A stretch of 64,000 bases of DNA from Clostridia bacterium (GTDB lineage Bacteria; Bacillota; Clostridia; Oscillospirales; CAG-272). A model generated the notes under the pieces. The model had not been told where the DNA came from, made no database searches, and saw only the letters and a program-made list of their open reading frames with translations. The stretch is from the NCBI GenBank assembly GCA_017472695.1, contig JAFUOQ010000010.1, positions 22,187 to 86,186 of the forward strand, given 5' to 3'. Positions 10,256-41,850 of the stretch are shown piece after piece. Both the position numbers and the translations under genes were made by a program. Every line of letters starts with the position of its first letter. Within the stretch, counting starts at the first letter, position 1.

Positions 10256-10791
10256 TAAAAAGTGGAAAAGGTGGAGGCAACACAAGAACAGGACTTGTGT
10301 TTGAAGGAAAAACCGATTTGTCAACATTTTTAGCAGAACAACCACACTATAGTTTGGTCGGAAATGATGTGTATTATGATAACAAAAAGGTAGCCGAGGT
10401 TTATAAAAAGTATAAGTTTTATAGTGTTTTTCTTGCCAAGCTTGGAATAGATTGGAAACAATATATTTCTAAAAGATTACTGCCTGATGATAGTATTTTT
10501 GTTTTGCTTAACAACGTGCTATTTATTATTGAATGTAAGCACCAAGAGGTTGCCGGTTCAGTAGATGAAAAGTTGCAAACATGCGATTTTAAAAAGAAAC
10601 AATACAAAAAGCTTATGGCTTCTGCAAATATTGATGTTGAGTATATATATTTGCTCGATGATTGGTTTAGACAAGAGCAATATACAGATGTTTTGAATTA
10701 CATACATTCTGTTGGATGTGACTATTATTTTGAATATATTCCGCTGCATAGATTAGGATTGCCAGTTCCACCAGAGCTTGTAAAAGATTAA
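10252..10791 (+). CDS. Putative type II restriction endonuclease (PD-(D/E)XK fold)
   Basis: ATGA overlap with the MTase stop, and AGGAG upstream. Candidate catalytic motif LPDDSIFV..(13)..IIECKHQ. The gene is sandwiched between two MTase genes. Confidence 0.55.
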   Translation: MIKSGKGGGNTRTGLVFEGKTDLSTFLAEQPHYSLVGNDVYYDNKKVAEVYKKYKFYSVFLAKLGIDWKQYISKRLLPDDSIFVLLNNVLFIIECKHQEVAGSVDEKLQTCDFKKKQYKKLMASANIDVEYIYLLDDWFRQEQYTDVLNYIHSVGCDYYFEYIPLHRLGLPVPPELVKD

Positions 10792-10792
10792 G

Positions 10793-11530: not shown

Positions 11531-11549
11531 TATAACATTGAGGTAAATT

Positions 11550-13097
11550 ATGGTAAGCATAGCATACAGTGCGGGGCTTTTTGGCATTGACGGATATTTG
11601 GTGACAGTTGAGTGCCACTCGGCTAGGCGCTTGTCCCTTTTTGAGATAGTGGGACTTCCTGACAATGCAATAAAAGAGGCAAAGGAGAGGGTTAGGGCGG
11701 CTGCTATTAACTCGGGCTTGCCATTTCCACAAAATGAAATAATAGTAAATTTAGCCCCTGCTGACAAAAGAAAAGAGGGCTCGTCCTTTGACCTTGCAAT
11801 TCTTATCAGTATTCTTTTAAGTGGCGAGGTGTTTGCAAAGCCACAAGAGCTTGAGGATGCTTGCTTTATAGGGGAATTATCGCTATCCGGAGAGGTGCGC
11901 CGAGTAAACGGTGCACTTTGTATGGCAGTTGCCGCAAAAAACGCAGGTAAAAAGAAGCTTTTTGTACCCTTTGAAAATGCAAAGGAAGCAAGTGTAGTTG
12001 AGGGACTTACAGTTTATGGAGTTAAGAATGTAAACGAAATAGTTAACCACTTTAACGGAGTTAAGGTGCTAGAACCACAAGCTCCAGTGCCTTTTGAAAG
12101 AGAAGAAAATTTAAATTATCCGGATTTTGCAGATGTTATGGGGCAATTTGCCGTGAAGCGTGCAGTTGAAATTGCAGCAGCTGGTGGACACAATATTTTG
12201 CTAATAGGCCCACCGGGTACAGGTAAATCAATGATAGCCAAGAGAATCCCATCTATCTTGCCCGAAATGACCTTTGACGAGTCGATAGAAACAACAAAAA
12301 TTCATTCAGTTTCTGGCATTTTGCCCGACGATGTTTCACTTATAAAGGAAAGACCATTCCGTTCTCCTCACCACACAATGTCAGCGCCATCTTTAGTTGG
12401 TGGTGGCAAAATTCCACAGCCTGGAGAGGTTTCACTAGCTAACAATGGCGTTTTGTTCCTTGACGAATTGCCAGAATTTAACCGCCTAGTTACAGAGTCA
12501 CTCCGTCAACCACTTGAGGACGGAAAAATCACAATAACAAGAACAGCTGGCAGAATTACATACCCTTGCTCATTCATGCTTGTTGCCGCTATGAACCCTT
12601 GTAAATGTGGCTACTATGGTCACCCCACCCACGAGTGTACTTGTAAAAAAGAGGACATAAAGAAATATATTTCAAAAATCAGTGGGCCACTCCTTGATAG
12701 AGTAGATATTCAAATTGAGGTGCCGTCACTCAACTATTCCGAAATTGCCGAGCGTAAAAAAGCAGAGCCGTCAAGCGAAATTCGTGCCAGAGTGAATAAG
12801 GCGCGACAAATTATGCAAGCTCGCTTTGAAAATGATGAAACTGAAAACGGTGTGAAAATCACAAGAAACGCGCAAATGGAGTCAAAGCATTTGCGCAAAT
12901 ACTGCACCTTGAGCCAAGAGTGCTCAGCTCTTATGGAAAGAGCATTTAAGGCTCTTGGGCTTTCCGCACGTGGCCACGATAGAATTCTACGCCTGGCAAG
13001 AACCATTGCCGACCTTGCAGGAAGTGATGAGATAAAACCAAACCATATAGCGGAGGCAATAGGGCTTCGCTCACTCGACAAAAAATATTTTAACTAA
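11550..13097 (+). CDS. YifB/ComM-family Mg-chelatase-like AAA+ ATPase
   Basis: 515 aa. N-terminal Lon-like domain, Walker A GPPGTGKSM, Cys cluster CKCGYYGHPTHECTC. Confidence 0.85.
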   Translation: MVSIAYSAGLFGIDGYLVTVECHSARRLSLFEIVGLPDNAIKEAKERVRAAAINSGLPFPQNEIIVNLAPADKRKEGSSFDLAILISILLSGEVFAKPQELEDACFIGELSLSGEVRRVNGALCMAVAAKNAGKKKLFVPFENAKEASVVEGLTVYGVKNVNEIVNHFNGVKVLEPQAPVPFEREENLNYPDFADVMGQFAVKRAVEIAAAGGHNILLIGPPGTGKSMIAKRIPSILPEMTFDESIETTKIHSVSGILPDDVSLIKERPFRSPHHTMSAPSLVGGGKIPQPGEVSLANNGVLFLDELPEFNRLVTESLRQPLEDGKITITRTAGRITYPCSFMLVAAMNPCKCGYYGHPTHECTCKKEDIKKYISKISGPLLDRVDIQIEVPSLNYSEIAERKKAEPSSEIRARVNKARQIMQARFENDETENGVKITRNAQMESKHLRKYCTLSQECSALMERAFKALGLSARGHDRILRLARTIADLAGSDEIKPNHIAEAIGLRSLDKKYFN

Positions 13098-13318
13098 TGG
13101 TAAAAAATATGAAAAAGAACAAGATTTTAAAAATCAAATTAAGCGAGGATGTGGCAAAGAAATTTGCCATCGTCGCAGAAAACGAAAAAATGACACTCCA
13201 AAATGAAATCATTTCTATGATTCGCCAAAAAATTTCATATTACGAAAGAGTAAAGGGCAATATCAAAAGAGAAGCCCTCGACTCCGCCAATATGAGCGAA
13301 TATTCAGACGAGGAATGA
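13097..13318 (+). CDS. Small hypothetical protein (possible ribbon-helix-helix-like)
   Basis: 73 aa. TAATG overlap with the yifB-like stop. No motif recognised. Confidence 0.4.
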   Translation: MVKNMKKNKILKIKLSEDVAKKFAIVAENEKMTLQNEIISMIRQKISYYERVKGNIKREALDSANMSEYSDEE

Positions 13319-13627
13319 TGGAAAACAAGGATTTGCCAAAACGAAAACCGAATAGATTGAGATGCTTTGACTATAGCATGCCAAAAGGCTATTTTATAAC
13401 AATTTGCACAGAAAATAGAAGCAAGCCCCTCCCCTACAATATCAGATATTGTTTGTGCGTTTAAATCACAATGCGTGCGAAATTGTAGGAAAACAGGCTT
13501 TGAGGGAAAGCTTTTCCAACGCTCGTTCCACGATCACATAATAAGAAACCGAGACGACTATGAAGAAATCTCAAAATACATTTACGAAAACCCTATAAAC
13601 CGGGAGACGGATGAATTTTATAATTAA
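13315..13627 (+). pseudogene. Decayed REP-associated tyrosine transposase (RAYT/IS200-Y1-like) gene
   Basis: N-terminal piece MENKDLPKRKPNRLRCFDYSMPKGYFITICTENRSK ends in a stop at about 13460. The C-terminal piece, in another frame, is ..IVCAFKSQCVRNCRKTGFEGKLFQRSFHDHIIRNRDDYEEISKYIYENPINRE. The middle, where the HUH motif is expected, is missing. The junction carries CCCCTCCCCTACAAT, which is a GTAGGGGAGGGG REP head on the other strand. Confidence 0.6.
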
Positions 13628-13655
13628 AAGCCCGAGCTTGACTTGGGCTTTTTCT
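13628..13655 (+). terminator. Intrinsic terminator
   Basis: GCCCGAG-CTTGA-CTTGGGC hairpin followed by TTTTTC. Confidence 0.6.
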
Positions 13656-13854
13656 GTTTTCTACACAAAGGATGAAAAATTATGCATAAATCTATTTAAA
13701 TATTACAAAATTTTAAAAAATAAGTCATAACTATTGAAATTTTTATTAAAAAGTGATATTATTACTATGAACGTGCATACGCGCGTGGTTTTTTCGCGCC
13801 TATTTCTATTATGGCGCATCTAAGTTAGCAAAAAATAAAACTGGAGGGTTTTTT

Positions 13855-29089: not shown

Positions 29090-29127
29090 GAGAACTTGCA
29101 ATATAACTGCAAGCTCTCTTCTTTTTT
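29090..29127 (+). terminator. Terminator-like hairpin
   Basis: GAGAACTTGCA-ATATAA-CTGCAAGCTCTC followed by TTCTTTTTT. Confidence 0.55.
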
Positions 29128-29176
29128 GTGTCTGTTTTTGAAAATTAAGAACTACGAGCATAGCGAAGGCGAAGGA

Positions 29177-29210
29177 AAATACGAGAACATTTCGGTGTTT
29201 CTCGTATTTT
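29177..29210 (+). terminator. Terminator-like hairpin
   Basis: AAAATACGAGAACA-TTTCGG-TGTTTCTCGTATTTTT. Confidence 0.6.
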
Positions 29211-29221
29211 TCTTTGCAAAA

Positions 29222-29297
29222 TTCACAAAGATTTCACAAATTCGGAACGAGGATGGAACAGTTGTGGAACAGATGCGGAACATGGTGTGAGTATAAT
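29222..29297 (+). promoter_or_regulatory. Six 11-bp-phased direct repeats ending 4 nt before a TATAAT -10; activator-type promoter of the FAS operon
   Basis: Six repeat units, each 11 bp:
- TTCACAAAGAT at 29222
- TTCACAAATTC at 29233
- GGAACGAGGAT at 29244
- GGAACAGTTGT at 29255
- GGAACAGATGC at 29266
- GGAACATGGTG at 29277
These are followed by TGAG and then TATAAT at 29292-29297. There is no TTGACA-like -35. Confidence 0.6.
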
Positions 29298-29360
29298 AAA
29301 TGCCAACGGACAACGTGCGAGTTAAGCACGCTGTTCAAAAATTTTTGGAGGTATTTTACC

Positions 29361-29585
29361 ATGTATTTTAACGCTATTGCAAAAGTTATCGCAGAAAGAA
29401 CCGATTGCGACATTTCCACCATCAAGCCCGAGAGCACATTCGTAGAGCTTGGTATCGATTCTCTTGATACCGTAGAGCTTCTGATGAGTCTTGAGGACGA
29501 GATCGGCGTGGAGATTGAGCTTGACAAGAAGGTTGAGACGGTTGGCGATCTTGACAAATTTATTCAAAGCAAGGTTCAGGGCTAA
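29361..29585 (+). CDS. acpP: Acyl carrier protein
   Basis: 74 aa from the ATG at 29361, with GGAGG at 29347-29351. Phosphopantetheine site LGIDSLDTVEL. Confidence 0.85.
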   Translation: MYFNAIAKVIAERTDCDISTIKPESTFVELGIDSLDTVELLMSLEDEIGVEIELDKKVETVGDLDKFIQSKVQG

Positions 29586-29588
29586 AAG

Positions 29589-30533
29589 ATGATTAAATCG
29601 AAGATCTGTGAGATACTTGGCATCAAGTATCCCGTATTTCAAGGCGGTATGGCTTGGATCGCGGATGGAAGATTGGCGGCGGCTGTATCTGAGGGCGGTG
29701 GTCTTGGCATTATTGCCGCAGGAAACGCGCCTGCCTCCTATGTTCGTGAGCAGATAGGAATCGCACGCTCGCTGACTTCGAAGCCCATCGGGGTCAACAT
29801 TATGCTTATGAGCCCGTATGCAGATGAAGTTGCTGCTGTTGTCGTAGAAGAAAATGTGGAAGTTGTTACAACAGGTGCGGGCAATCCGTCCAAGTATATG
29901 AAGGAGTGGAAAGCTGCCGATATCAAGGTCATTCCCGTTGTAGCATCTGTGGCTATGGCGAAGATCATGACAAGGTCAGGCGCGACCGCACTGATTGCGG
30001 AAGGCGGCGAGAGTGGTGGACACGTGGGTGAGCTTACCACAATGGTGCTCGTTCCGCAGGTGTGCGATGCTACCGAGCTTCCCGTAATTGCCGCAGGCGG
30101 TATTGCCGATGGACGTGGTGTTGCGGCGGCATTGATGCTTGGAGCCGAGGGAGTTCAACTTGGAACACGCTTCCTTTCCGCTTGTGAGTGTTCTATACAC
30201 CCCACTTATAAGGAAAAGATACTGAAGGCGACAGATCTTTGCACGATGGTGACGGGTAAAAGGCTTGGTCACCCCGTTCGTAGCCTGCGCACCAAATTCG
30301 CGCAAAATTATTCCAAAGCCGAATACAGCGGTATGCCCGACGAGGAGCTTGAAAATCTTGCGGTCGGCGCACTCCGTCTTGCCGTCAAGGAGGGTGACCT
30401 TGAAAAGGGCTGCTTCCTTGCAGGTCAGATCGCGGCAATGGTCAAAAAAGAACAGAGCGCCGCAGAGATCGTAAAAGAGATTATGGATGAGGCGGAGCCT
30501 ATCCTGAAAGGAGCATCAAGATGGGTAGAATAG
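29589..30533 (+). CDS. fabK: Enoyl-ACP reductase II (FMN-dependent, FabK/NMO family)
   Basis: 314 aa. YPVFQGGMAWI, GGESGGHVG and AAGGIADGRG motifs. Confidence 0.85.
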   Translation: MIKSKICEILGIKYPVFQGGMAWIADGRLAAAVSEGGGLGIIAAGNAPASYVREQIGIARSLTSKPIGVNIMLMSPYADEVAAVVVEENVEVVTTGAGNPSKYMKEWKAADIKVIPVVASVAMAKIMTRSGATALIAEGGESGGHVGELTTMVLVPQVCDATELPVIAAGGIADGRGVAAALMLGAEGVQLGTRFLSACECSIHPTYKEKILKATDLCTMVTGKRLGHPVRSLRTKFAQNYSKAEYSGMPDEELENLAVGALRLAVKEGDLEKGCFLAGQIAAMVKKEQSAAEIVKEIMDEAEPILKGASRWVE

Positions 30534-31429
30534 CATTTGTTTTTTCCGGGCAGGGAGACCAATTTTCCGGAATGGGAAAGGAACTGTATGAAAATTACAT
30601 ATGGGCAAAAAAGATATTTGATGCCTGTGATGAGATTCGTCCCAACACCTCCCGTCAATGCTTTGAGGGAACAGAAGAAGAATTAAAGGAAACCAAAAAT
30701 ACACAGCCCTGCCTTTTTGCTATGGAGCTTGCCGCCGCAAACGTTCTTGTGGAACGCGGTATCAAGCCATATGCGGTCGCGGGATTTTCTCTCGGAGAGG
30801 TTGTGGCTTGTGCGTTTTCAGGCATTGTTGATTGGGAAACGGGCTTTCGTTTGGTATGCCGTCGCGGTGAGTTGATGCAGGAAGCGGCAGAAAAGCAGGA
30901 TACGTCAATGGTGGCGGTAGTAAAGCTCGACAATGAAATAGTAAAGGGGATTTGCGCAAAATATTCTGCCGTATATCCCGTAAACTTCAATTGTCCGGGA
31001 CAGGTTTCCGTTGCAGGTCTTACCTCGCAGATGGCGGATTTTTCCGCAGACGTAAAGGCTGCGGGCGGCAGAGCGCTTCCCATCAAGGTTAAGGGTGGTT
31101 TTCATTCTCCTTTCATGAATGAAGCAGCTGCACTATTTGCAAAGGAGCTTTCAAAGGTTCAGTTCAATCAAGGAAATGCCGTTCTCTATTCCAACAAAAC
31201 TGCAAAGCCTTATACAAATGGAACTGTCGATCTTCTTTCGTCACAGATATGCAATCCTGTTTTGTGGGAGGAGCTGATACGAAATATGATCGCAGAAGGA
31301 ATTGATACCTTTATCGAAATCGGCCCCGGTAAAACGCTGACCAATATGATCAAAAAAATTAGTAACGAGGTGAACGTATATTCGGTCTTCGATCTTGATA
31401 CGGTGCTTTCGGAGGTGGCTGAATGTTGA
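30521..31429 (+). CDS. fabD: Malonyl-CoA:ACP transacylase
   Basis: 302 aa. FVFSGQGDQ and GFSLGE active-site serine motifs. Confidence 0.9.
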   Translation: MGRIAFVFSGQGDQFSGMGKELYENYIWAKKIFDACDEIRPNTSRQCFEGTEEELKETKNTQPCLFAMELAAANVLVERGIKPYAVAGFSLGEVVACAFSGIVDWETGFRLVCRRGELMQEAAEKQDTSMVAVVKLDNEIVKGICAKYSAVYPVNFNCPGQVSVAGLTSQMADFSADVKAAGGRALPIKVKGGFHSPFMNEAAALFAKELSKVQFNQGNAVLYSNKTAKPYTNGTVDLLSSQICNPVLWEELIRNMIAEGIDTFIEIGPGKTLTNMIKKISNEVNVYSVFDLDTVLSEVAEC

Positions 31430-32151
31430 ACGGAAAAGTAGCCATCATCACGGGCGGCTCACGTGGGATCGGTGCGGCGATTACATATAAGCTTGCCTCT
31501 CTCGGTGCTGACGTTGCTGTGATTTACGCAGGCAACAAGGACGCAGCTGAAGCGGTATGTGACAGATGCAAAGCAGAATTCGGAGTTAAAGCCGAAGCCT
31601 ATCTTTGTGACGTGTCCGATTTTGGTGCCGTAAAGGAAACCGTTGTTAGGATAAAAGCAGACTTTGGCGCGGCTCATATCCTTGTAAACAATGCGGGTGT
31701 AACGCGTGACGGGCTTGCGGCGATGATGAGGGAAGAGGATTTTGACAAGGTCGTTGATACAAACCTAAAGGGCGCATTCAATATGATCCGCCACGTCACC
31801 CCCTTGCTTTTAAGAAGTAAAGAGGGTTGTATTATCAATATCAGCTCGGTTTCGGGTTTGATGGGAAATGCAGGTCAAAGCAATTATTCTGCTTCAAAGG
31901 CGGGATTGATCGGACTGACAAAGTCGGTCGCCAAGGAGTATGCTGCCAAGGGAATTCGCTGTAATGCGATTGCTCCCGGTTTTATTAAGACCGATATGAC
32001 CGAAGCACACGCTGATAATCCGCTTCTATCCATGATTCCTCTTGGAAAAATGGGGGACGTTGAGGATGTTGCTGAAGCGGTTGCCTATTTGATAGGCGCA
32101 AAATACGTAACAGGCGAGGTCCTCCGAGTTGACGGCGGGATCGCCATGTAA
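31423..32151 (+). CDS. fabG: 3-oxoacyl-ACP reductase (SDR)
   Basis: 242 aa. TGGSRGIG, NNAG and YSASKAG motifs. Confidence 0.9.
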   Translation: MLNGKVAIITGGSRGIGAAITYKLASLGADVAVIYAGNKDAAEAVCDRCKAEFGVKAEAYLCDVSDFGAVKETVVRIKADFGAAHILVNNAGVTRDGLAAMMREEDFDKVVDTNLKGAFNMIRHVTPLLLRSKEGCIINISSVSGLMGNAGQSNYSASKAGLIGLTKSVAKEYAAKGIRCNAIAPGFIKTDMTEAHADNPLLSMIPLGKMGDVEDVAEAVAYLIGAKYVTGEVLRVDGGIAM

Positions 32152-32162
32152 GGAGAAAAAAG

Positions 32163-33410
32163 ATGAATGAGAATACAAAGCGTGTCGTAGTAACGGGAAT
32201 CGGCGCGATCACACCTGTTGGAAAGACGACAGCCGAGACTTGGGGAGCGCTCAAGTCTGGCAAAAACGGAATCGCGCCGATCACCTTATTTGATACGACC
32301 GATTATAAAGCAAAGCTTGGGGCACAGGTCAAGGACTTTAACGCTCTTGATTATATGGAAAAATCCGAAACGCTCCGTACCGACCGTTACACACAGTTTG
32401 CGCTCATCGCCGCACAGCAGGCGGTGGAGGAAAGCGGTATTGTGGGCAATGTCACCCCCGAGCGCTTCGGCGTTTATTTGGGGGTCGGTATTGGCGGTAT
32501 CGGTACGTTAGAGACCGAGCATACGAAGCTGATGGAAAAAGGTCCTCGCAGAGTTTCCTCTCTGCTTGTGCCTATGATGATCCCAAATATGGCGGCAGGC
32601 ATGATCGCCATAAAATATGATTGCAGAGGTTCTGCTATGCCTGCGGTTACGGCTTGTGCATCGGGCTCTAACGCCATTGGTGAAGCTATGCGACTGATAC
32701 GCCACGGATACGCCGATGCTGTGATAACAGGTGGAGCAGAAGCGGCAATCTGTCCCTCTGCCGTTGCGGGCTTTGTTAATATGCACGCGCTTTCCACAGC
32801 CGAGGATGCAAATGCGGCATCCTTGCCCTTTGACAGCAGACGCACAGGCTTTGTGATCGGTGAGGGCGCAGTTTGCCTTGTGCTTGAGGAATACGAGCAC
32901 GCAAAGGCGCGCGGTGCAAAGATCTATGCCGAGGTATGCGGATATGGCTCTACCTGCGACGCAAATCACATCACAGCCCCACATCCCGAGGCGCGCGGAG
33001 GAGCACAGGCAATGATGGATGCGATGCGTGAGGCGAGGTACACCGAAAAGGATACCGTGTATATTAACGCTCACGGTACGGGAACGCCGATGAACGATAA
33101 GCTGGAGACTATGGCAATCAAAAAAGCACTTGGTGAGGAGGCGGCAAGACGCGCCTTTGTCAGCTCCACAAAGTCTATGACGGGTCATATGCTTGGAGCA
33201 GCGGGCGCTATTGAAGCCCTTGCATGTATTTTTGCGTTGAACGAAGATATCATTCCCCCTACCATCAATCTTAACGAGCAGGATGCAGAATGCGATTTGA
33301 ACTATGTTCCCGAAGTTGCCATTCAGCAAAAGATCGACCTAGCTCTTTCCAATTCTCTTGGGTTTGGCGGACACAATGCGTGTCTTGCATTCAGAAAGGT
33401 GTCAACATGA
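32163..33410 (+). CDS. fabF: 3-oxoacyl-ACP synthase II
   Basis: 415 aa. Active-site ACASGS, HGTGTP and GFGGHNA motifs. Confidence 0.9.
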
Positions 33411-33841
33411 ACGAGAAGGATATTCGCAAATATGCACAGCTTATGAAGGAGCTTGATCTGACTGGTCTTGAGATCACGGAAGACAATAAGGTGGTTCGCT
33501 TGGAACGTACACAGCCTATAACCACCCGCGAGCCGATGGTCATTCAAACTGCCGTTGCCCCTGTTTCGGCGGAGCAATCGCAGGTAAGTGAAGCAAACGA
33601 CGGCTGTATCAGAATTACTTCCTCCATTGTTGGCGTGTTTTACGCTGCCCCTGCCGAAAATGCAGAGCCCTTTGTAAAGATTGGTGACCGTGTGGAAAAG
33701 GGACAGACACTTTGTATTATTGAGGCAATGAAGCTGATGAACGAGATTGCAGCAGAGGAAAGCGGCATCATTGAAAAAATTGGAGTAACAAACGGTCAGG
33801 TCGTTGAATTCGGAACCGAGCTGTTTCGTATCAGGAGATGA
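33407..33841 (+). CDS. accB: Biotin carboxyl carrier protein
   Basis: ATGA overlap with the fabF stop; the listed start 33290 is rejected. Biotinylation motif EAMKLMNEI. Confidence 0.85.
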
Positions 33842-33844
33842 GCT

Positions 33845-34261
33845 ATGATAAAAGAAGAAATCAAAAATATGTTGCCTCACAGAGAGCCAATGCTTCTGCT
33901 CGATGACGTGGAAAACAGGGACGGCTGTGCCATTGGGCATTATAAGGTCAAGGGAGATGAATTTTTTTTACAGGGACATTTTCCAAATAACCCAATCGTC
34001 CCCGGTGTGATCCTTTGTGAGATTTTGGCACAATCGGCTTGCATTTTGATGGTTGACGTGATGACGGACGGTAAGCTTCCCGTATATACGGGACTCAATA
34101 ATGTAAAGTTTCGTCATTCCGTCCGCCCCGGAGATCTGATCGAAACCAAATGCTCAATCAAAAGGGCGAAGCATCCCTTCTATTTTGCAGAAGGAACAGT
34201 AAATGTGGATGGCAAGGTCTGTGTCAGCGCAGAATTTTCCTTTGCCATCGTTGGAGAATGA
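33845..34261 (+). CDS. fabZ: 3-hydroxyacyl-ACP dehydratase
   Basis: 138 aa. LPHREPMLLLD and GHFPNNPIVPGV motifs. Confidence 0.9.
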   Translation: MIKEEIKNMLPHREPMLLLDDVENRDGCAIGHYKVKGDEFFLQGHFPNNPIVPGVILCEILAQSACILMVDVMTDGKLPVYTGLNNVKFRHSVRPGDLIETKCSIKRAKHPFYFAEGTVNVDGKVCVSAEFSFAIVGE

Positions 34262-34264
34262 TCT

Positions 34265-35572
34265 ATGTTTTCAAAGATATTGATTGCCAATCGCGGCGAG
34301 ATTGCCGTTAGAATTATCAGAGCCTGCAAGGAAATGGGTGTTGCTACCGTAGCGGTATATTCGGAAGCCGATAAAAACGCACTTCACGTGGCACTTGCCG
34401 ACGAAAGCTACTGCATTGGACGCGCGGAAGCCTCGGAAAGCTACCTGAATGAAAATCAGATCATCAGCACAGCTCTTCTTGCAGGAGCGCAGGCGATCCA
34501 TCCCGGGTATGGCTTTTTGTCAGAAAATGCTCATTTTGCAAGAGCGTGTCGCAAGAACGGCATCGTATTTATAGGTCCCGATCCCGAGGATATGGAACGT
34601 TTGAGTGATAAAGCCATATTAAAAGAGTTGATGAGCAATGCAGGGCTTACCGTGATTCCGGGTACCAAAGCCGTAGCATCGCTCACAGAAGCAAAAAAAG
34701 CAGCCGAAAGGATCGGATATCCCGTGATGATGAAGGCGTGCGCGGGTGGTGGCGGACGAGGAATTCGTCTGATCAGACAAGAAAATGAAATCGACGATGC
34801 ATATATGCAAGCAACAGCCGAGGCGTTAAGCGCCTTCGGTGACGGCTCGGTATATCTCGAAAAATATATTTTCCCTGCAAAACATATTGAATTGCAGATC
34901 CTCGCTGATGAGGCAGGAAACGTAGTATGCCTTGGCGAAAGAGATTGCTCCTTACAGAGAAGAAATCAAAAATTGATCGAGGAAACACCTTCCCCTGCCG
35001 TATCGGAGAATCAGCGTAATAAAATTATGGAAACAGCCATCAAGGCGGTGAAAAAGATCGGTTATGTTGGCGCCGGAACGCTTGAATTTCTCTATGATCA
35101 GCAAGGTAATTTCTGGTTTATGGAAATGAATGTGCGTCTTCAGGTGGAGCATTGTGTGACAGAGATGCTGACAGGCTTTGATCTTGTTAAATGGCAAATT
35201 CGTATTGCCGCAGGCATTCCGCTGAACTTCACGCAGAGCGACGTCAGGATCGTAGGGGCGGCGATCGAGTGCAGAATCAATGCGTCAAGCTGCGGAACGC
35301 TGAAAATGCTTCACGTTTCCGGCGGTCCCGCGGTACGTTTTGATACTTGCCTTGTGGAAGGAACTGTTGTTTCGCCTTATTATGATTCCTTGCTTGGAAA
35401 GCTGATTGTGTATGCGAAAACAAGGGAGGAGACCTTGCGCAAGCTCAGAGCGGCTCTTTGCGAGCTTGTGATCGACGGCATCCCCACAAACGTGGAGGAG
35501 CAGCTTCGTATCGTTTCCGATAAGCGCTTTGCATCGGGCGATTATGATTTAACTTTTATGGGTAGTAGGTGA
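34265..35572 (+). CDS. accC: Biotin carboxylase
   Basis: 435 aa. ATP-grasp fold (KILIANRGEIAVRIIRA, GGGGRGIR, EMNVRLQVEH). Confidence 0.9.
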   Translation: MFSKILIANRGEIAVRIIRACKEMGVATVAVYSEADKNALHVALADESYCIGRAEASESYLNENQIISTALLAGAQAIHPGYGFLSENAHFARACRKNGIVFIGPDPEDMERLSDKAILKELMSNAGLTVIPGTKAVASLTEAKKAAERIGYPVMMKACAGGGGRGIRLIRQENEIDDAYMQATAEALSAFGDGSVYLEKYIFPAKHIELQILADEAGNVVCLGERDCSLQRRNQKLIEETPSPAVSENQRNKIMETAIKAVKKIGYVGAGTLEFLYDQQGNFWFMEMNVRLQVEHCVTEMLTGFDLVKWQIRIAAGIPLNFTQSDVRIVGAAIECRINASSCGTLKMLHVSGGPAVRFDTCLVEGTVVSPYYDSLLGKLIVYAKTREETLRKLRAALCELVIDGIPTNVEEQLRIVSDKRFASGDYDLTFMGSR

Positions 35573-35576
35573 TACG

Positions 35577-36437
35577 ATGGCATTACTGAATTTCTTAAAA
35601 CCTAAAAACAATCTGGAGGAGGGCGGTCGCACGTCCGCTCCTGTTCATAGTGATGTGGGCGAGCCCGAAAAAAACTGTCCCAATTGTCACAAGGATATTC
35701 CCATGAGCCGTCTGTGGGCAAATCAGTTGGTCTGTTCTTGCGGATATCATTTCAGAATGAAAGCGCGTCAGCGTATCAGCATGATAAGCGACAAAAACAG
35801 CTTTCGGGAATTGTTTGTGAGCGTGAGGTCATGTAATCCTCTCGGATTTCCCGGCTACCGTGAAAAGCTTGAAACCTCAAAGACCGCAAGCGAGGAAGAA
35901 GAAGCTGTTGTTTGCGGTACCGCCTCTATCGGTAAACAACAGTGCTGTATTTTTGCTATGGAGTCCACATTTATGATGGGCAGTATGGGAAGCGCGGTCG
36001 GAGAGAAGATCACATCACTTTTTGAATACGCTACGCAACATCGCTTGCCTGTCATCGGCTTTACCGTATCGGGAGGTGCCAGAATGCAGGAAGGACTGCT
36101 GTCTCTTATGCAAATGGCAAAAACAAGCGCTGCTGTGAAGCAACATAGCGACGTGGGGCTTTTGTATATCGCCGTCCTGACAGATCCTACGACAGGAGGC
36201 GTAACGGCAAGCTTTGCAATGGAAGCCGATATCATTTTGGCAGAGCCGAGTGCTACGGTTGGATTCGCAGGCAAGCGTGTGATTGAACAAACAACAAAGC
36301 AGAGCTTACCGAAGGAATTTCAATCTGCCGAATTTGTGTTGGAGCACGGATTTATTGACAAAATTGCTGTCAGAAAGGATCAGAGAAAGCTTCTGGCAGA
36401 GCTTCTTAAAATGCATAACGGAGGAGAAAGCGTATGA
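35577..36437 (+). CDS. accD: Acetyl-CoA carboxylase carboxyltransferase beta subunit
   Basis: 286 aa. N-terminal Zn ribbon CPNC..CSCG, then a carboxyltransferase domain. Confidence 0.85.
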   Translation: MALLNFLKPKNNLEEGGRTSAPVHSDVGEPEKNCPNCHKDIPMSRLWANQLVCSCGYHFRMKARQRISMISDKNSFRELFVSVRSCNPLGFPGYREKLETSKTASEEEEAVVCGTASIGKQQCCIFAMESTFMMGSMGSAVGEKITSLFEYATQHRLPVIGFTVSGGARMQEGLLSLMQMAKTSAAVKQHSDVGLLYIAVLTDPTTGGVTASFAMEADIILAEPSATVGFAGKRVIEQTTKQSLPKEFQSAEFVLEHGFIDKIAVRKDQRKLLAELLKMHNGGESV

Positions 36438-37228
36438 GTGAGATGCCCTATGACAGAGTAAAGCTTGCAAGAGACAACAAGCGTCCCACGGGACAGGACT
36501 ATATCAAAAACATTTTCAAGAATTTTATCGAGCTTCACGGAGACAGACGATATGCAGATGATAAAGCCGTTATTGCCGGTATCGCGCGTCTCGACGGTTT
36601 ACCCGTAACGGTCATTGCTATTGAAAAAGGACATTCCTCCAAAGAGCGTGTGGAGCGTAATTTCGGCGCACCTCACCCCGAGGGTTATCGAAAAGCATTG
36701 CGTTTGATGAAGCAAGCCGAGAAATTCGGCAGACCGATTATTTGTTTTGTGGACACGTCGGGTGCATATTGCGGCATTGGTGCGGAGGAGCGCGGGCAAG
36801 GTCAGGCGATTGCCGAGAATTTGATGGAAATGAGCACGCTTTGCGTTCCCGTTATCTCGATTTTGATCGGAGAAGGAGGGAGCGGAGGTGCGTTGGCACT
36901 TGCCGTGGCAGACCGCGTTTGGATGCTTGAGAATGCGGTGTATTCCGTGATCTCTCCCGAGGGATGCGCAAGTATTTTATGGAAGGATTCCGGCAAGGCA
37001 GACATTGCGGCGGCAAGTCTAAAGCTGACTGCCGAGGATGCCAAAAGTCTCGGCGTGATTGAGCGAATCCTTTCTGAGAATGAAATGGGTCAAAAGGAAT
37101 ATTACGAGCGTATTCGCACATTACTCGGCGAGGAAATTCAAGCACTTACGAAGGATCCCGATCTTTTGCAAAAACGATACGACCGTTTCCGCAGGATCGG
37201 AATGACCGATACAGAGCAGATGCTTTAA
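36434..37228 (+). CDS. accA: Acetyl-CoA carboxylase carboxyltransferase alpha subunit
   Basis: 264 aa. Overlaps the accD stop. FVDTSGAYCG and GEGGSGGALA motifs. Confidence 0.85.
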   Translation: MSEMPYDRVKLARDNKRPTGQDYIKNIFKNFIELHGDRRYADDKAVIAGIARLDGLPVTVIAIEKGHSSKERVERNFGAPHPEGYRKALRLMKQAEKFGRPIICFVDTSGAYCGIGAEERGQGQAIAENLMEMSTLCVPVISILIGEGGSGGALALAVADRVWMLENAVYSVISPEGCASILWKDSGKADIAAASLKLTAEDAKSLGVIERILSENEMGQKEYYERIRTLLGEEIQALTKDPDLLQKRYDRFRRIGMTDTEQML

Positions 37229-37242: not shown

Positions 37243-38880
37243 ATGAGTATATATAAAAAATATTGCCGTGAGTCTTTTGACAAGGACGGCAAGCTGATCA
37301 ATTTTGAAATAGAATATCCGAAGGACTTCAATTTTGGTTACGATGTGGTGGACGTATATGCGGAAACCGAACCGAATAAAAAGGCTCTCGTTTGGTGTAA
37401 CACTAAAAACGAGGAGCACATTTTTACCTTTGCGGATATCAAAAAATACAGTAACCGAATTGCGAATACGCTTGCAGATGCGGGTGTAACAAAAGGCAGC
37501 CGTGTGCTGGTGATATTAAAGCGGCACTACGAGTATTGGTTTGTTGCGGTTGCCTTGCACAAGCTTGGTGCTGTGATGATTCCTGCCACGCATATGTTGA
37601 CGGTTAAGGACTTGGAATACCGCATAAATGTCTCACACGCCGATGCGATCATTTGCACACCGCAGGATGATGTACCAAGCAATATCAAAGCTGCTTTAGA
37701 ATCGACAGAGACAGTTCCCATGCTTTGGTGCGTGCAGGAGAGCGTGGAGGGCTTTTGCAATCTGACTGAAGAAATGAAGCTTGCAAACGAAGAATTGGAG
37801 CGTATCCCAACGCTCGCCACCGATCATATGCTGATGTACTTTACCTCAGGCACAACGGGAAATCCCAAAGGCGTGATTCATGATTTTACTTATCCCTTGG
37901 CACATATTGTAACAGCAAAATATTGGCAACAAGCCGAGGAGGATGGACTGCATTTTACGGTTGCCGAAACGGGATGGGCTAAGGCTTCTTGGGGAAAGAT
38001 CTACGGTCAGTGGCTTGTCGGCTCCGCCGTAATGGTATATGACTTTGATAATTTTGAACCGAAACAGTTGACGAATATTATCAACCGTTACGGAGTGACC
38101 TCGTTTTGCGCGCCGCCAACCGTTTACCGATATCTTGTCCGCAAGGGCGTTCCTAAAATGCCGAAGCTTCGCCATGCATCGACTGCGGGAGAAAAGCTTG
38201 CTCCAGATGTGTTTCAAACATTTACCGAGCAAACGGGACTTGTGCTTTGCGAGGGTTACGGACAAACTGAAACGACCTTGCTGATGGGAAATATGAAGAA
38301 CTATACACCCGTCGAGGGCTCTATGGGGATCGTATCTCCGATGTATCACATCGAGCTTCAGGATAAAAAAGGAAACGCAGTACCCCAAGGAGAAATCGGA
38401 GAGGTTGTCATCGTTCCGCCTGAAAACGGAAAACAGATCGGCGTTTTCTGCGGTTATCTCGATAACGAAAAGCAATACGAGCACGTATGGCGCGGAGGCG
38501 TGTATCATACGGGAGACGCGGCTTGGCAGGATGAAAACGGACTGTATTGGTTTCACGGTCGCTTTGACGATATTATCAAAACGGGAGGCTTTCGTGTTGG
38601 TCCCTATGAGATCGAAAACGTGCTGATGGAACATCCTGCAGTCACCGAATGCAGTGTGATTGGCGTCCCCGATGCTTTGCGCGGTCAAGCAATCAAAGCC
38701 GTTGTGATCCTTCAAAATGGCTTTGTTCCAACCAAAGAGCTTGAAAAGGATATCAAGGATTTCTGTAACGCAAAGCTCGCGGAATATAAATGGATCCGTA
38801 TCGTTGAATTTGTCACAGAAATGCCCAAAACCATCATCAGCGGTAAGATCAAGAAAACAGAGCTTCGCAAAAGAGCTTGA
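37243..38880 (+). CDS. AMP-forming acyl-CoA synthetase (medium-chain ACSM/MACS-like)
   Basis: 545 aa, starting 14 nt after the accA stop. AMP-binding motifs YFTSGTTGNPKG, GYGQTET, YHTGD and ISGKIKK. Confidence 0.8.
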   Translation: MSIYKKYCRESFDKDGKLINFEIEYPKDFNFGYDVVDVYAETEPNKKALVWCNTKNEEHIFTFADIKKYSNRIANTLADAGVTKGSRVLVILKRHYEYWFVAVALHKLGAVMIPATHMLTVKDLEYRINVSHADAIICTPQDDVPSNIKAALESTETVPMLWCVQESVEGFCNLTEEMKLANEELERIPTLATDHMLMYFTSGTTGNPKGVIHDFTYPLAHIVTAKYWQQAEEDGLHFTVAETGWAKASWGKIYGQWLVGSAVMVYDFDNFEPKQLTNIINRYGVTSFCAPPTVYRYLVRKGVPKMPKLRHASTAGEKLAPDVFQTFTEQTGLVLCEGYGQTETTLLMGNMKNYTPVEGSMGIVSPMYHIELQDKKGNAVPQGEIGEVVIVPPENGKQIGVFCGYLDNEKQYEHVWRGGVYHTGDAAWQDENGLYWFHGRFDDIIKTGGFRVGPYEIENVLMEHPAVTECSVIGVPDALRGQAIKAVVILQNGFVPTKELEKDIKDFCNAKLAEYKWIRIVEFVTEMPKTIISGKIKKTELRKRA

Positions 38881-38883: not shown

Positions 38884-39230
38884 TGCTATGAGCGGCGACA
38901 ATGCACCTTCCAAAATTCTTCGTGGGGTGCTTTGTGCTGTTGAAGAAACAGATGTTCACTTCACCTTGCTGGAAATAAGAGTGAAATTGCAAGAATCTCT
39001 AAAGAAATAGGGTTAAGCTTGGAAAGCATTGAGATCATTCATGCGTTATAGAAATGGAGGATGATCCAATCTCTGCTTTTGATCGAAAGAAGGACTCGTC
39101 CATGATGACGGGGCTTAAATTGCTTGCTGACGGACAGGGCGATGCTTCAAGCGGTTCAATATGTACAAAGCGGTGTCTCAAACAAAATCAGGCACGTAGA
39201 GTAGGCAACGGTTACATCCGAACATACACG
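38884..39230 (+). pseudogene. plsX: Remnant of plsX (phosphate:acyl-ACP acyltransferase), frameshifted and truncated
   Basis: DAMSGDNAPSKILRGVLCAVEETDVHFTLL..KLQESLKK (frame of listed ORF 38717..39010). Then, in another frame, MEDDPISAFDRKKDSSMMTGLKLLADGQGDA (listed ORF 39054..39326). These match the PlsX N-terminal pattern DAMGGDNAP...KKDSSM...G.ADA. The remaining two thirds or so of the gene are absent. Confidence 0.55.
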
Positions 39231-39252
39231 GTATTCATTCGGCTCGAATCGA

Positions 39253-39281
39253 TTGACGAAGGTGAAAATATATGGTATAAT
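39253..39281 (+). promoter_or_regulatory. Sigma-A-type promoter of the PAS-wHTH regulator gene
   Basis: TTGACG (39253-39258), 17-nt spacer, TATAAT (39276-39281). Confidence 0.6.
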
Positions 39282-39347
39282 ATATTGTCAATGATGTATT
39301 TCTATGGAGAGCGAGATTGGATATGAGAGGTATATAGAGGAGATAGA

Positions 39348-41345
39348 ATGAACTTTCAATTAGAAAACAATACGGAAATACTGGATCAGTATATCAGCGG
39401 TTTCCGTCAATATATATTCGGAGAGTCGGTATTGCCGACCTTCATCAGTAGCAATTTTTGTAATATGGTGGGATATACCAAGGAAGAACTGGAGAGTAGC
39501 ACTGCTGATCTTTATGCGGAATTGGTGTATCAGGCAGATAGACATACATACGAGGATTTTTTGAACGGGATTGCACAGAACCGAGCATCTGACACTACGG
39601 AGTACAGACTCGTAAAAAAGGACGGTTCTGTTGTATTCGTCAGAGATACTATGACGGTGAAAGAATCCGAAGATCACAGCTTGGTCGGTTATTCCGTACT
39701 AACTGACATTACGGCAGTAAAAGCCGAAAATGAAAACCTTCGTTTTTTAAATGATACCGTTCCTTGCGGTATGCTCAAATACACCTGTGAGAAAAATCCC
39801 AAAATCACGTTTGTGAATAGGCAAATGCTTGAAATGATGCGCTTTCCCGATTCAAAGGACGGAGAGATCGATTACTTGGAGCTCTATAAGGACAATATCT
39901 ATTTGATGATTCCCATGGAGGAGCGGCGTAAGTTCTCACATTTTTTGAATCAGGTCTATACAAGCGGTTCACCAATTGCCGGAGAACTATCTGTACTCCG
40001 TTGCGACGGAACAAAAGCGCATTTGTACGGTTGGGTGACAAAGGTCACGAATACCGACGGTACAGAGGAATTTCAAAGCGTATGTATGGATGTGACCAAG
40101 CGGTATTATACCAAGAGAGCAACTGCTACCGAGCGGTATCTGAAAGCTCTTTCGGATGTATATGAAAAGATATTTGAGTACGATTTTGCAAACGGAACGG
40201 TAAAATACGTTTCGGGCGGTTCTGATACGTTCAGCAGAATTCGAAATCTGCCGATGCACATGGAGGAGGCGACCGAACAATGGATTGAGCATAGCGTATA
40301 CTCCGATGACCGCACTCTCATGCATGAATTCTTCTCAAACGTCTTTATGCAAAACACATCAAGCGGAATCCGCCCGCCGCAGATACAATACAGGGTAATA
40401 AAGAACGGCAAAATTCAGTATTATGCAGGTATCTTTTTGAAAATCGATTCCGGTGTTTCCTTGTTCTGCTGTCGAAAGTTACAGAACGATGGCGAGTCGG
40501 AGGCGTTGCGCAACGAAAACATTTCCTTGAAGAACAGAAATGAGAATATACAGGAAATGATCATGCGATATACAGACGGTCTCGCCGCATTTGAGATTAC
40601 CGATGACTGCGTTACTCCTTTGTATGCAAGTGATAATGTTTGCGAATTTTTTGGCTTTACAAAGGAAGAGTGGCTGCCGCTGATGAAGCAAAGCACCACG
40701 ATCAGAGAATTCGTTTCAAGAAGCGCGGTTGATTACGAAAAGTTCTCTGAGCTTCTGCGAACAGGAGAAGCTGAATTTACCTATTACGACATCGATGCAG
40801 ATACTGAAAAGCGTATTAAGGCGATCTGCTCACAGAAGCAGGCAGACATAACATCCCCTCGTTATGTTATGCTTTACAAAATGGATTCTTCGGAGCAGAA
40901 AAACGCAAATGTAGAGCAACCGAAGATCTATATCCGTACTTTTGGATATTTTGATATTTTTGTAAATGACAAGCCAATTGCTTTCCGCAATAAAAAAGCA
41001 AAGGAGCTATTGGCTTTGCTTGTTGACCGTCGTGGAGGATATGTGACGAGCGAGCAAGCCATTGGATATTTGTGGGAAAACGACTCAGCCAACACGGTAA
41101 CCTTGGCAAGATACCGTAAGGAGGCACTCCGCCTCAAAAACACTTTGGAGGAATACGGTATCGGGCATATTATAGAATCGGTGGACGGAAAGAGACGCAT
41201 CATTCCCGAACACATTGAATGTGATCTTTATAATTACCTTTCGGGTAAGGAGGAATTTACGGGACTTTTCAAAGGAAGCTATCTTACCGATTATGCTTGG
41301 GGGGAAATGACACTTGGTGAGCTTATGAATGATGCTATGAATTGA
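39348..41345 (+). CDS. One-component regulator: multiple PAS-like sensor domains + C-terminal SARP/OmpR-type winged-helix DNA-binding domain
   Basis: 665 aa. PAS-like blocks (e.g. FCNMVGYTKEELES..EYRLVKKDGSVVFVRD; MLEMMRFPDS..VLRCDGTKAHLYG). The C-terminus IYIRTFGYFDIFVNDKPIAFRNKKAKELLALLVDRRGGYVTSEQAIGYLW..CDLYNYL matches the SARP/BTAD N-terminal wHTH pattern. No receiver domain. Confidence 0.65.
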   Translation: MNFQLENNTEILDQYISGFRQYIFGESVLPTFISSNFCNMVGYTKEELESSTADLYAELVYQADRHTYEDFLNGIAQNRASDTTEYRLVKKDGSVVFVRDTMTVKESEDHSLVGYSVLTDITAVKAENENLRFLNDTVPCGMLKYTCEKNPKITFVNRQMLEMMRFPDSKDGEIDYLELYKDNIYLMIPMEERRKFSHFLNQVYTSGSPIAGELSVLRCDGTKAHLYGWVTKVTNTDGTEEFQSVCMDVTKRYYTKRATATERYLKALSDVYEKIFEYDFANGTVKYVSGGSDTFSRIRNLPMHMEEATEQWIEHSVYSDDRTLMHEFFSNVFMQNTSSGIRPPQIQYRVIKNGKIQYYAGIFLKIDSGVSLFCCRKLQNDGESEALRNENISLKNRNENIQEMIMRYTDGLAAFEITDDCVTPLYASDNVCEFFGFTKEEWLPLMKQSTTIREFVSRSAVDYEKFSELLRTGEAEFTYYDIDADTEKRIKAICSQKQADITSPRYVMLYKMDSSEQKNANVEQPKIYIRTFGYFDIFVNDKPIAFRNKKAKELLALLVDRRGGYVTSEQAIGYLWENDSANTVTLARYRKEALRLKNTLEEYGIGHIIESVDGKRRIIPEHIECDLYNYLSGKEEFTGLFKGSYLTDYAWGEMTLGELMNDAMN

Positions 41346-41353
41346 GAAAAAAT

Positions 41354-41791
41354 ATGGAAACAAGAACATACGATTATATTCGAAAAGTAAACTATTATGA
41401 AACCGATAAAATGGGGATCACACACCACTCCAACTATGTTCGTTGGATGGAAGAGGCTCGCACTGCGTTCCTTAATCATTTCGGTTGTGGGTATGCCAAA
41501 TTTGAAGAATACGGTGTTATATCCCCTGTTCTGTCCGTTAATTGTGAGTATAAGCACACAACCACATTTGAAGATGAGATTATCATTCACGTTGCTGTAG
41601 AGAAATACACAGGGGTCAAGCTGACATTCAGATATATTATGGAAAATTTTAAAACGGGTTCAACAGTTATGCTTGGTAAAAGCGAGCATTGCTTTCTTGA
41701 TGAAAAGCATATTCCCGTTATTGTGAGAAAGAGATTCCCAAAATTTGATGCAATACTCAAAGGCTTGGTTGCTAAAATTGACGAAAACTAA
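41354..41791 (+). CDS. Acyl-CoA thioesterase, 4HBT/YbgC family (hot-dog fold)
   Basis: ATG at 41354. VNYYETDKMGITHHSNYVRWMEEAR motif. Confidence 0.75.
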   Translation: METRTYDYIRKVNYYETDKMGITHHSNYVRWMEEARTAFLNHFGCGYAKFEEYGVISPVLSVNCEYKHTTTFEDEIIIHVAVEKYTGVKLTFRYIMENFKTGSTVMLGKSEHCFLDEKHIPVIVRKRFPKFDAILKGLVAKIDEN

Positions 41792-41804: not shown

Positions 41805-41850
41805 AAAAAACAAAGAGGGTTCGTGCACTTACGAATCCTCTTTGTTTTAT
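41805..41850. terminator. Bidirectional terminator (thioesterase / MATE convergent pair)
   Basis: AAAAAA-CAAAGAGGGTTCGT-GCACTT-ACGAATCCTCTTTG-TTTTATTTT. Confidence 0.8.

Follow-up and report, generated by a model that had tools for sequence, protein, structure and literature searches.

An 11-bp-phased GGAAC array at the promoter of a clostridial fatty-acid synthesis operon, a candidate operator for a PAS–winged-helix regulator

Results

A fatty-acid synthesis cluster with a repeat array at its promoter

The window (the whole 64-kb stretch of DNA that was analysed) carries a fatty-acid synthesis cluster with an array of short direct repeats at its first promoter and the gene of a 665-aa PAS protein near its end. 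The features are as follows, with promoter positions given relative to the inferred transcription start site, which is expected about 7 nt after 29297:

29090..29128, +: terminator-like hairpin with a T-run, ending the upstream YbaK-like gene and a small ORF; start of the promoter region
29169..29217, +: second hairpin, 19-nt arms, 89% complementary, followed by T's; abuts the first TTCACAAA
29222..29229, +: upstream repeat U1, TTCACAAA; about -82 to -75
29233..29240, +: upstream repeat U2, TTCACAAA; about -71 to -64
29244..29250, +: repeat R1, GGAACGA (family consensus GGAACGC); about -60
29255..29261, +: repeat R2, GGAACAG (family GGAACt); about -49
29266..29272, +: repeat R3, GGAACAG, over the nominal -35 position; about -38 to -32
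29277..29283, +: repeat R4, GGAACAT, in the -35/-10 spacer; about -27 to -21
29292..29297, +: -10 hexamer TATAAT, without TGn extension and without a -35 partner
29310..29334, +: small 5'-leader hairpin, then an A/T run and a GGAGG ribosome-binding site (29347-29351)
29361..29585, +: acpP (acyl carrier protein), first gene of the operon; Pfam PP-binding and NCBIfam acyl carrier protein
29589..37228, +: fabK-fabD-fabG-fabF-accB-fabZ-accC-accD-accA; profile matches, the FabK equivalog model being passed
37243..38880, +: acyl-CoA synthetase; best model short/branched-chain MbcS, below its cut-off
39054..39326, +: 90-aa ORF, a probable plsX remnant; relatives have a full PlsX or ACPS at this place
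39253..39281, +: regulator promoter, TTGACG, 17 nt, TGnTATAAT; canonical sigma-70-type, 66 nt 5' of the regulator ATG
39348..40919, +: sensor part of the regulator, four PAS-like domains (Pfam/NCBIfam PAS matches, AlphaFold2 model)
40920..41345, +: C-terminal module of the regulator, predicted OmpR/SARP-type winged helix and short helical tail (AlphaFold2/Foldseek)
41342..41791, +: YbgC/FadM-type acyl-CoA thioesterase, last gene of the cluster
41807..41848, +: strong intrinsic terminator with a 19-bp stem, end of the cluster

By domain and family models, the genes from acpP to accA form a complete type II fatty-acid synthesis operon. The acyl-CoA synthetase that follows is kept at the same position in all relatives. 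No gene for a FabT- or FapR-type regulator was found in the cluster of the window or in the flanking ORFs scanned, and no other OmpR/SARP-type regulator was found in the conserved neighbourhood. Likewise, no response regulator was conserved in the neighbourhood of the loci compared. MarR genes lie beside the clusters of two relatives (L128 and L252) and were rejected as FabT (39.6 bits against a FabT model cut-off of 200).

Two terminator-like hairpins stand 5' of the array, which therefore lies at the start of a transcription unit. In Rfam searches the second of these hairpins gave only sub-threshold noise; the 5'-leader hairpin of acpP matched no Rfam family and its consensus fold was weak. 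An RNA element in the leader or the upstream hairpin was rejected on these grounds.

Architecture of the array

The initial annotation, made from the sequence alone, had claimed six direct repeats at an exact 11-bp phase, and direct reading bears this out for the window. The six repeats start at 29222-29277, all spaced exactly 11 bp, and the array spans 29222-29283 as two copies of TTCACAAA and four of GGAAC(G/A) in a single register, with GGAACG at 29244 and GGAACA at 29255, 29266 and 29277. The coordinates that had been given for the TTCACAAA pair, the GGAAC repeats and the TATAAT (29292-29297) all held. So did the claim that the last heptamer lies about 8 nt from the -10: R4, taken as the heptamer GGAACAT (29277-29283), ends 8 nt before TATAAT, and the distance from the last GGAAC to TATAAT is 10 nt. 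The absence of a TTGACA-like -35 was confirmed as well. Hexamers 16-18 nt 5' of TATAAT match TTGACA at 0-2 of six positions, and a promoter scan returned no sigma-70 site on the + strand at the acpP promoter.

The array is not expected by chance. Three GGAAC copies at 11-bp spacing, with one mismatch allowed, occur only once in the 64 kb, at the acpP promoter (expectation 0.00 from 100 dinucleotide shuffles). The exact pair TTCACAAA-N3-TTCACAAA is also unique in the window, the expectation being 0.27 with up to two mismatches. Tandem Repeats Finder (TRF) detected only 2.6 copies at the array, because the 5-6-nt spacers differ from one another. We conclude that the array consists of phased short cores and is not a satellite.

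Conservation of the array in related operons

We compared the array across relatives in a set that was unbiased with respect to the DNA motif, since the operons were fetched by FabZ homology and the motif was not used. The set comprises 10 lineages, namely the window and nine others (L127, L128, L130, L252, L253, L254, L255, L256 and L257), and their FabZ proteins are 64-88% identical to that of the window. One of these lineages, L130, looks Ruminococcus bromii-like, judged only by a neighbouring CBM26 amylase gene.

The array was present in the same register in all 10 operons. R1 reads GGAACG and R2 reads GGAAC in 10/10, and R4 reads GGAAC in eight. R3 is degenerate, with GGAAC in only two of the ten and variants such as GGTGC, GGAAT, AGAAC and CGGCC, among others, in relatives. 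The family cores can thus be written as GGAACGC for R1, GGAAC for R2, degenerate for R3 and GGAACA for R4; across species, only R1, R2 and R4 of the six repeats are strongly conserved. U2, like the TTCACAAA pair as such, is missing in about half of the set.

Two pattern scans extended the comparison. A scan of the genome collection for four GGAAC copies at 11-bp spacing gave at least 120 matches, mostly plain tandem repeats. Two Clostridia MAGs among them (L019 and L080) showed the same array at the same distance from TATAAT, with acpP-fabK directly downstream. A metagenome scan with a looser pattern also returned at least 120 matches, and the counts from it are lower bounds; 33-35 acpP promoters and 58 tandem repeats were among 120 matches, together with unrelated sequences.

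From these we assembled a non-redundant set of 29 promoters less than 80% identical to one another, 26 of them from the metagenome pattern scan and the rest from loci already in hand. At R1 positions that the search pattern had left unfixed, G6 was present in 28/29 promoters and C7 in 22/29; the unfixed G of R4 was kept in 28/29. The gap between the GGAAC of R4 and the -10 was 10 nt in 20 promoters and 11 nt in the other nine. At the U2 position, a TTcAnA element 11 nt upstream of R1, TT was found in 22-23 and A in 21 of the 29 promoters. The U1 position, 22 nt upstream of R1, carries a weaker TTyAnAAA that is moderately conserved in relatives. The initial annotation had taken the two repeat types to suggest two bound factors or a composite site. 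The TTCACAAA pair is real, but as a TTCAnA pair it is only moderately conserved, which leaves six functional repeats and two factors as possibilities only.

Across about 35 lineages the cores of the array are kept while the spacers diverge. This sequence comparison shows that selection acts on the cores and not on the spacers. Among 33 related promoters the -10 is TATAAT in 28 and a TGn is present in one, and in 31 the best match to a -35 reaches at most three of six positions, no better than random. With cores conserved and -35 matches at random level, we conclude that the promoter cannot depend on a -35 and has the array as a conserved cis-element.

No array-less control operon was found among the 10 FabZ-fetched operons (nine new ones and that of the window; identity down to 64%). 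Co-occurrence of array and regulator is therefore confounded by shared ancestry and is not phylogenetically independent. Further arrays were absent elsewhere in the window and in six related loci scanned (~8-22 kb each), and the collection-wide pattern scan, whose counts are lower bounds, yielded no second target promoter. The only signature-like match beyond the acpP promoters (L165) was without genes and was discarded. GGAACC arrays and then satellites (L185 and others) were also considered and set aside as lying inside a coding region and unrelated.

A 665-aa protein with PAS-like domains and a predicted C-terminal winged helix

The same cluster had been said to encode, at 39348..41345, PAS sensors fused to a DNA-binding domain of the OmpR/SARP type. 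Profiles, AlphaFold2 and Foldseek all support this, with the restriction that the protein is SARP-like only. In the full-length AlphaFold2 model, PAS-like domains occupy approximately residues 8-125, 138-250, 270-380 and 410-512, with a long helix at 381-408, and the winged helix follows the four domains at approximately residues 525-620 of 665. A separate AlphaFold2 model of the last 141 aa had pLDDT values of ~76-94 over its residues 1-100. The best Foldseek matches of this module were AfsR (8k60/8hvr) and EmbR (2fez), with E values from 3e-5 to 2e-4, followed by the DNA-binding domains of PhoB, ArlR and SaeR.

Sequence profiles were less informative. The Pfam Trans_reg_C match of the regulator was not significant (E=0.038; 14.5 bits against a cut-off of 26.2), and in a profile search of PDB sequences AfsR ranked first, again without significance (E=0.24). 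The Pfam BTAD model was not reported for the regulator even at E up to 10. In SARPs a BTAD, ~150 aa and all-helical, is expected after the winged helix; here only ~45 residues follow, modelled as two to three helices with pLDDT below 60. Pfam and NCBIfam gave only PAS N-terminal to the winged helix, and no receiver (REC) domain was found. With its BTAD undetected and its DNA-binding domain at the C-terminus, we regard the regulator as SARP-like and not as a bona fide SARP. By model prediction, and without binding data, it resembles a direct-repeat binder of the SARP/PhoB type yet fails the membership tests of both families.

More than 1,000 homologues of similar length were found in MAGs of Clostridia, Acutalibacteraceae and Oscillospiraceae, annotated only as 'PAS domain-containing protein'. 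Among homologues that are 57-91% identical over their full length, the C-terminal module (last 140 residues) is 67-87% identical. A profile search of 1.84 billion representatives returned 2,213 clusters with this module (representatives at 50% identity), and in the 150 best-scoring of these representatives the module was always C-terminal. In a sample of 68 family representatives the N-termini contained PAS (42), GGDEF (31) or dCache (4), and Pfam recognised Trans_reg_C (E up to 1e-3) in only three of the 68.

Linkage of array and regulator

The regulator gene adjoins the operon in nine of the 10 lineages of the unbiased set, and it does so also on the L080 contig (via P0019) and in L150. L198 differs in that the genes of synthetase and regulator have been relocated as a pair to just upstream of the array; since the pair moved and still lies beside the array, the linkage has survived rearrangement. 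Two lineages have the array without an adjacent regulator, namely L255 and the split operon of L140/L153, a statement that holds for the locus only and not for whole genomes. The initial annotation had proposed to check whether the array is conserved in relatives that carry the regulator; the array was present in every relative examined, with the regulator nearly always adjacent. A search for other GGAAC arrays, which had also been proposed, gave no second target promoter in the window, the related loci or the collection scan. One array per locus and no other such promoter suggest a dedicated regulator.

The regulator's own promoter has a good -35, in contrast to the acpP promoter, which has none, and TTGACG/TTTACA-17-TATAAT-like sites are also present in at least four relatives (L127, L252, L253 and L254). 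We read the invariant GGAAC core as a parallel to the unusually conserved DNA-binding domain of the regulator. The conserved neighbours (the short/branched acyl-CoA synthetase and the thioesterase, in some lineages also PlsX, ACPS and BirA) suggest a lipid-related signal, which is speculation.

At a further locus (L057) an array adjoins birA and a homologue of the regulator. This homologue is a pseudogene (stop and frameshift) and the array has no -10, so that L057 gives only weak support for a link between site and regulator.

Discussion

A putative activator-dependent promoter

The reading that we favour, as somewhat more likely than not, is that transcription from this sigma-A promoter depends on an activator bound to the array, and that the protein encoded at 39348-41345 is this activator, a one-component regulator dedicated to type II fatty-acid synthesis in Oscillospirales-like Clostridia. 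The architecture of the array, its conservation and its genomic linkage to the regulator are shown by the data above, and the fold of the DNA-binding domain is shown as a model prediction; binding, activation, stoichiometry and ligand are inferred.

In this view, the winged-helix domains of the 4xPAS-wHTH protein, which would be expressed from its own canonical promoter, bind the GGAAC sites as tandem head-to-tail protomers. The R3/R4 pair in the -35/spacer region, where SARP dimers sit, would stand in for the -35, and the protomers bound there would recruit or adapt RNA polymerase via sigma region 4 and the alpha C-terminal domain, as in SARP/PhoB complexes. Further protomers, binding cooperatively, may occupy the distal R1/R2 pair upstream and, where it exists, the TTCAnA pair. 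Oligomerisation or DNA binding would be adjusted by the PAS domains according to an unidentified ligand, lipid-related or metabolic. The promoter would then drive acpP-fabKDGF-accB-fabZ-accCDA and the genes after it.

Several points speak against this model or limit it. Among them are the two lineages with the array and no adjacent regulator, the non-significant sequence matches to Trans_reg_C and AfsR, and the confounding by shared ancestry. The TTCAnA repeats differ in sequence from GGAAC; it is possible that they hold extra low-affinity protomers, or that they bind a second factor. The model is further weakened because the BTAD, the contact of SARPs to RNA polymerase, is missing. Finally, activator-only control of an essential operon is unusual in Firmicutes, where FabT and FapR are repressors.

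Alternative explanations

An unlikely alternative, and the strongest of those considered, is that the PAS-wHTH protein of the cluster does bind the array, in the role of a repressor or of a dual switch. When fatty acids are plentiful, RNA polymerase could for instance be blocked by a ligand-bound form on R4, and basal transcription would come from the strong -10 by itself. The location of R4, between the -35 and -10 positions, is a frequent one for repressors, and a BTAD activation domain is absent from the regulator. The known fatty-acid regulators of Firmicutes, FabT and FapR, also act by repression. However, a usable -35 or an extended -10 is lacking in the lineages compared, which would leave the unassisted promoter very weak for an essential, highly expressed operon. 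The position and phasing of the sites are moreover those of SARP/PhoB activators, which also occupy the spacer (PMC10936776), and sites further upstream, here at -49 and -60, typically serve recruitment and not occlusion.

Slightly less probable still is that another winged-helix protein encoded elsewhere, of the OmpR/PhoB family (PhoP or WalR type), binds the array, and that the PAS protein regulates something else or only part of the site, such as the TTCAnA pair. Phased direct hexamers at 11 bp are generic for the OmpR/PhoB family, WalR/YycF affects fab gene expression in S. pneumoniae (PMC4996995), and L255 and L140 hold the array without an adjacent PAS regulator. TTCACA also fits the B. 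subtilis PhoP half-site TT(A/T/C)ACA. Against this, the linkage of regulator and operon is tight and survived the L198 rearrangement, the DNA-binding domain of the regulator is strongly conserved in parallel with the invariant core, and no response regulator is conserved in the neighbourhood. By inspection, the reverse complement of GGAACG/GGAACT does not fit the WalR consensus TGTWAH. A WalR reading of the array itself was ruled out, as was a sigma-54 reading, by inspecting the core and its variable sixth base.

It remains very unlikely that the GGAAC cores are -35 elements of an ECF-type sigma factor, many of whose promoters have a similar -35, or that the array has no function and is an 11-bp tandem repeat or a bent-DNA element, even though plain tandem repeats of 11 bp with GGAAC in them are widespread in bacteria (most of at least 120 genome-scan matches and 58/120 metagenome-scan matches): both readings are largely refuted by spacing and conservation pattern, because GGAAC lies 10 nt (R4) or 21 nt (R3) and not 16-17 nt from a -10 that is the housekeeping TATAAT and not of the CGT type, and because conserved cores with diverged spacers in ~35 lineages are unlike the product of tandem-repeat drift, with TRF barely detecting a repeat here in contrast to the true tandem arrays in the collection scans.

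Significance

Beyond the activator model preferred above, a bolder reading can be formulated, which we can neither endorse nor dismiss. It holds that the protein belongs to an unrecognised family of one-component regulators in which PAS and often also GGDEF sensors are joined to a divergent C-terminal SARP-like winged helix that Pfam misses, a family of ~2,200 clusters when representatives are taken at 50% identity. In gut and rumen Clostridia of the Oscillospirales type, one orthologous group within it would serve as master activator of type II fatty-acid synthesis. Its members would line up as four to six protomers on the phased GGAAC/TTCAnA sites, in place of a -35, and through their PAS domains would match the synthesis of membrane lipids to a signal that is a lipid or a short-chain acid.

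Control of bacterial fatty-acid synthesis is known through FadR/FabR, DesT, FapR, FabT and FasR/MabR, and none of these was found in the cluster examined or in its relatives. The claim that the locus differs from known fatty-acid paradigms is supported in that we found no description of a regulator or operator of this type in the literature searched. If the activator model is true, a PAS-sensing, SARP-like activator with a conserved and easily recognised operator would be a new paradigm, and SARP-style replacement of the -35 would extend beyond Actinobacteria and beyond secondary metabolism. The locus also opens lipid homeostasis to experiment in gut and rumen Clostridia, which are abundant but genetically intractable: with the operator defined, a probe follows directly from its sequence, and the regulon appears to be a single operon. 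In addition, a large unannotated family of output domains (PAS/GGDEF-wHTH) is flagged for annotation.

Comparison with known regulatory systems

The closest parallels are the SARPs (AfsR, ActII-ORF4 and DnrI; also EmbR). The repeats in SARP targets follow one another at 11 or 22 bp, and 8 bp separate the 3' one from the -10 (PMC10936776). SARPs activate through contacts to sigma region 4 and to the core of RNA polymerase. The candidate site described here, for which there are no binding data, shares the 11-bp direct repeats, the 3' heptamer 8 bp from the -10 and the poor -35, and the regulator shares a winged helix, predicted to be of the OmpR type, that is structurally closest to AfsR and EmbR. 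The proposal in the initial annotation that the layout is that of a SARP/OmpR-type operator thus holds in silico, as it equals the published rule. Under the published SARP rule, the two proximal repeats have their common centre at about -29.5 and the upstream one covers the -35. This overlap is also seen in AfsR, where the repeat located in the spacer, the downstream one, counts more for function (PMC10936776). The conserved R4 in the spacer and the degenerate R3 over the -35 parallel this importance of the downstream repeat.

The differences from SARPs are considerable. No BTAD is detectable in the regulator, and four PAS domains precede its C-terminal DNA-binding domain, whereas the SARP domain is N-terminal with any extras C-terminal to it. 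It occurs in Clostridia and not in Actinobacteria. The array has a GGAAC core and four to six repeats, unlike the TCGAG-like core and the two or three repeats of SARP targets, and the putative target of the regulator is primary lipid metabolism instead of antibiotic clusters.

The PhoB/pho box system and other OmpR-family regulators share the winged-helix fold (PhoB, ArlR and SaeR are among the structural matches) and 11-bp phased repeats that replace the -35. Head-to-tail binding is established for them and proposed here, and an activation complex with six PhoP exists in the PDB (9ji5), a multi-protomer precedent from the OmpR family. In contrast to this family, the regulator has neither a receiver domain nor a partner kinase, its PAS input being in the same polypeptide, and it does not match Pfam Trans_reg_C significantly.

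FabT and FapR act on the same pathway, and the FabT operon is very similar (acpP-fabK-fabD-fabG-fabF-accB-fabZ-accCDA). FabT (MarR family) and FapR (DeoR-type) are dimeric repressors with palindromic operators and sense acyl-ACP or malonyl-CoA; here the repeats are direct, the promoter lacks a -35 and the candidate regulator is a PAS-wHTH protein. FasR, a TetR-family protein of mycobacteria and Streptomyces, activates fas until long-chain acyl-CoA switches it off. Positive control of an essential fatty-acid synthase operon, modulated by a ligand, thus has a precedent, but FasR belongs to an unrelated protein family, has an inverted-repeat operator and regulates FAS I.

Direct fusion of a PAS sensor to a DNA-binding output has a counterpart in the PAS-LuxR regulators PimM and PteF of Streptomyces, which are pathway-specific activators (PMC3367932, PMC9774167). 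Unlike the winged-helix protein described here, they have a LuxR-type HTH, a single PAS domain, and other operators and targets. Taken together, these comparisons place the proposed mechanism in a class that is already known, a winged-helix activator on phased direct repeats. With binding still inferred, what would be new is the domain architecture, the taxon, the target pathway and an operator of four to six repeats.

Promoter and gene neighbourhood of the regulator

Expression of the PAS-winged-helix regulator probably does not depend on the acpP promoter, its proposed target, an inference that we draw from sequence alone. The interval between the fab operon and the regulator gene contains two features:

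Window 39253-39281: near-consensus sigma-70 promoter (TTGACG, 17 nt, TGnTATAAT), located 66 nt 5' of the regulator gene
Window 39054-39326: 90-aa ORF between the acyl-CoA synthetase and regulator genes, matching the PlsX (FA_synthesis) family only weakly

Sites similar to this promoter were found in four related loci (L127, L252, L253 and L254). The position of the 90-aa ORF is occupied in relatives by a full PlsX (L125 and L127) or by ACPS (L123). The ORF resembles a plsX remnant that now houses the predicted promoter of the regulator; this reading is likely, but likewise inferred.

On the other side of the regulator, a MarR-family gene comes next in two relatives:

L128, 17406-17888: MarR-family gene 3' of the PAS regulator; 39.6 bits with the FabT model, far under the 200-bit cut-off
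L252, 17137-17580: MarR-family gene 3' of the PAS regulator; no match at all to the FabT model

In L125 and L127, birA lies immediately 3' of the regulator. The array and a regulator homologue were also encountered near a biotin-protein ligase gene in L057, a Clostridia MAG (4383-6472), in which a GGAACG/GGAACT/GGAACA/GGAACA array directly abuts the start codon of the ligase gene; a shortened regulator homologue, pseudogenised by a stop codon and a frameshift, comes after it.

The C-terminal winged-helix module defines an extensive family of 2,213 clusters (clustered at 50% identity; representative proteins include P0241-P0390), the members of which carry variable N-terminal sensor regions (PAS, GGDEF or dCache). 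Of 68 members sampled, only 3 carry a module that Pfam Trans_reg_C picks up.

Phased arrays and acpP leaders at other loci

The acpP leaders of all relatives share the following arrangement:

Window 29310-29334: small hairpin in the acpP leader, followed by GAAAAATTTT and GGAGG

Covariation in the hairpin was weak, and a search for an Rfam match to it yielded none. The leader is unusually long in one human-gut lineage (L140, about 10600-13677, minus strand, and L153), with the ATG ~180 nt past the last repeat. Here the array precedes a split operon comprising only acpP-fabK-fabD-fabG, followed by cbiQ, truA and rplM.

Several Clostridia contigs (L185, L028, L036, L114, L184, L217 and L226) carry four to five GGAACC repeats at 11-bp spacing, followed by short TATAG/TTAGAG-type satellites. 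One was considered as an acpP-type operator:

L185, 6989-7042, minus strand: GGAACC array

We rejected this candidate as unrelated, coding low-complexity sequence because it lies within a 268-aa ORF. Separately, a GC-rich phased array (GGAACGGCGGGGGAACACGCCGGGAAGTCCGAGGGAACGGCCGCC...) was common to four GC-rich metagenome contigs, L154 (3991-4044), L156, L168 and L251.

Acyl-CoA synthetase at the operon end

Every related fab operon ends with a conserved gene for an AMP-binding enzyme:

Window 37243-38880: AMP-binding enzyme at the end of the fab operon

Its best score was with the short/branched-chain acyl-CoA synthetase MbcS of S. aureus (405 bits, under the cut-off of 850). Judged only by its sequence, the enzyme may convert external short-chain acids into primers for fatty-acid synthesis.
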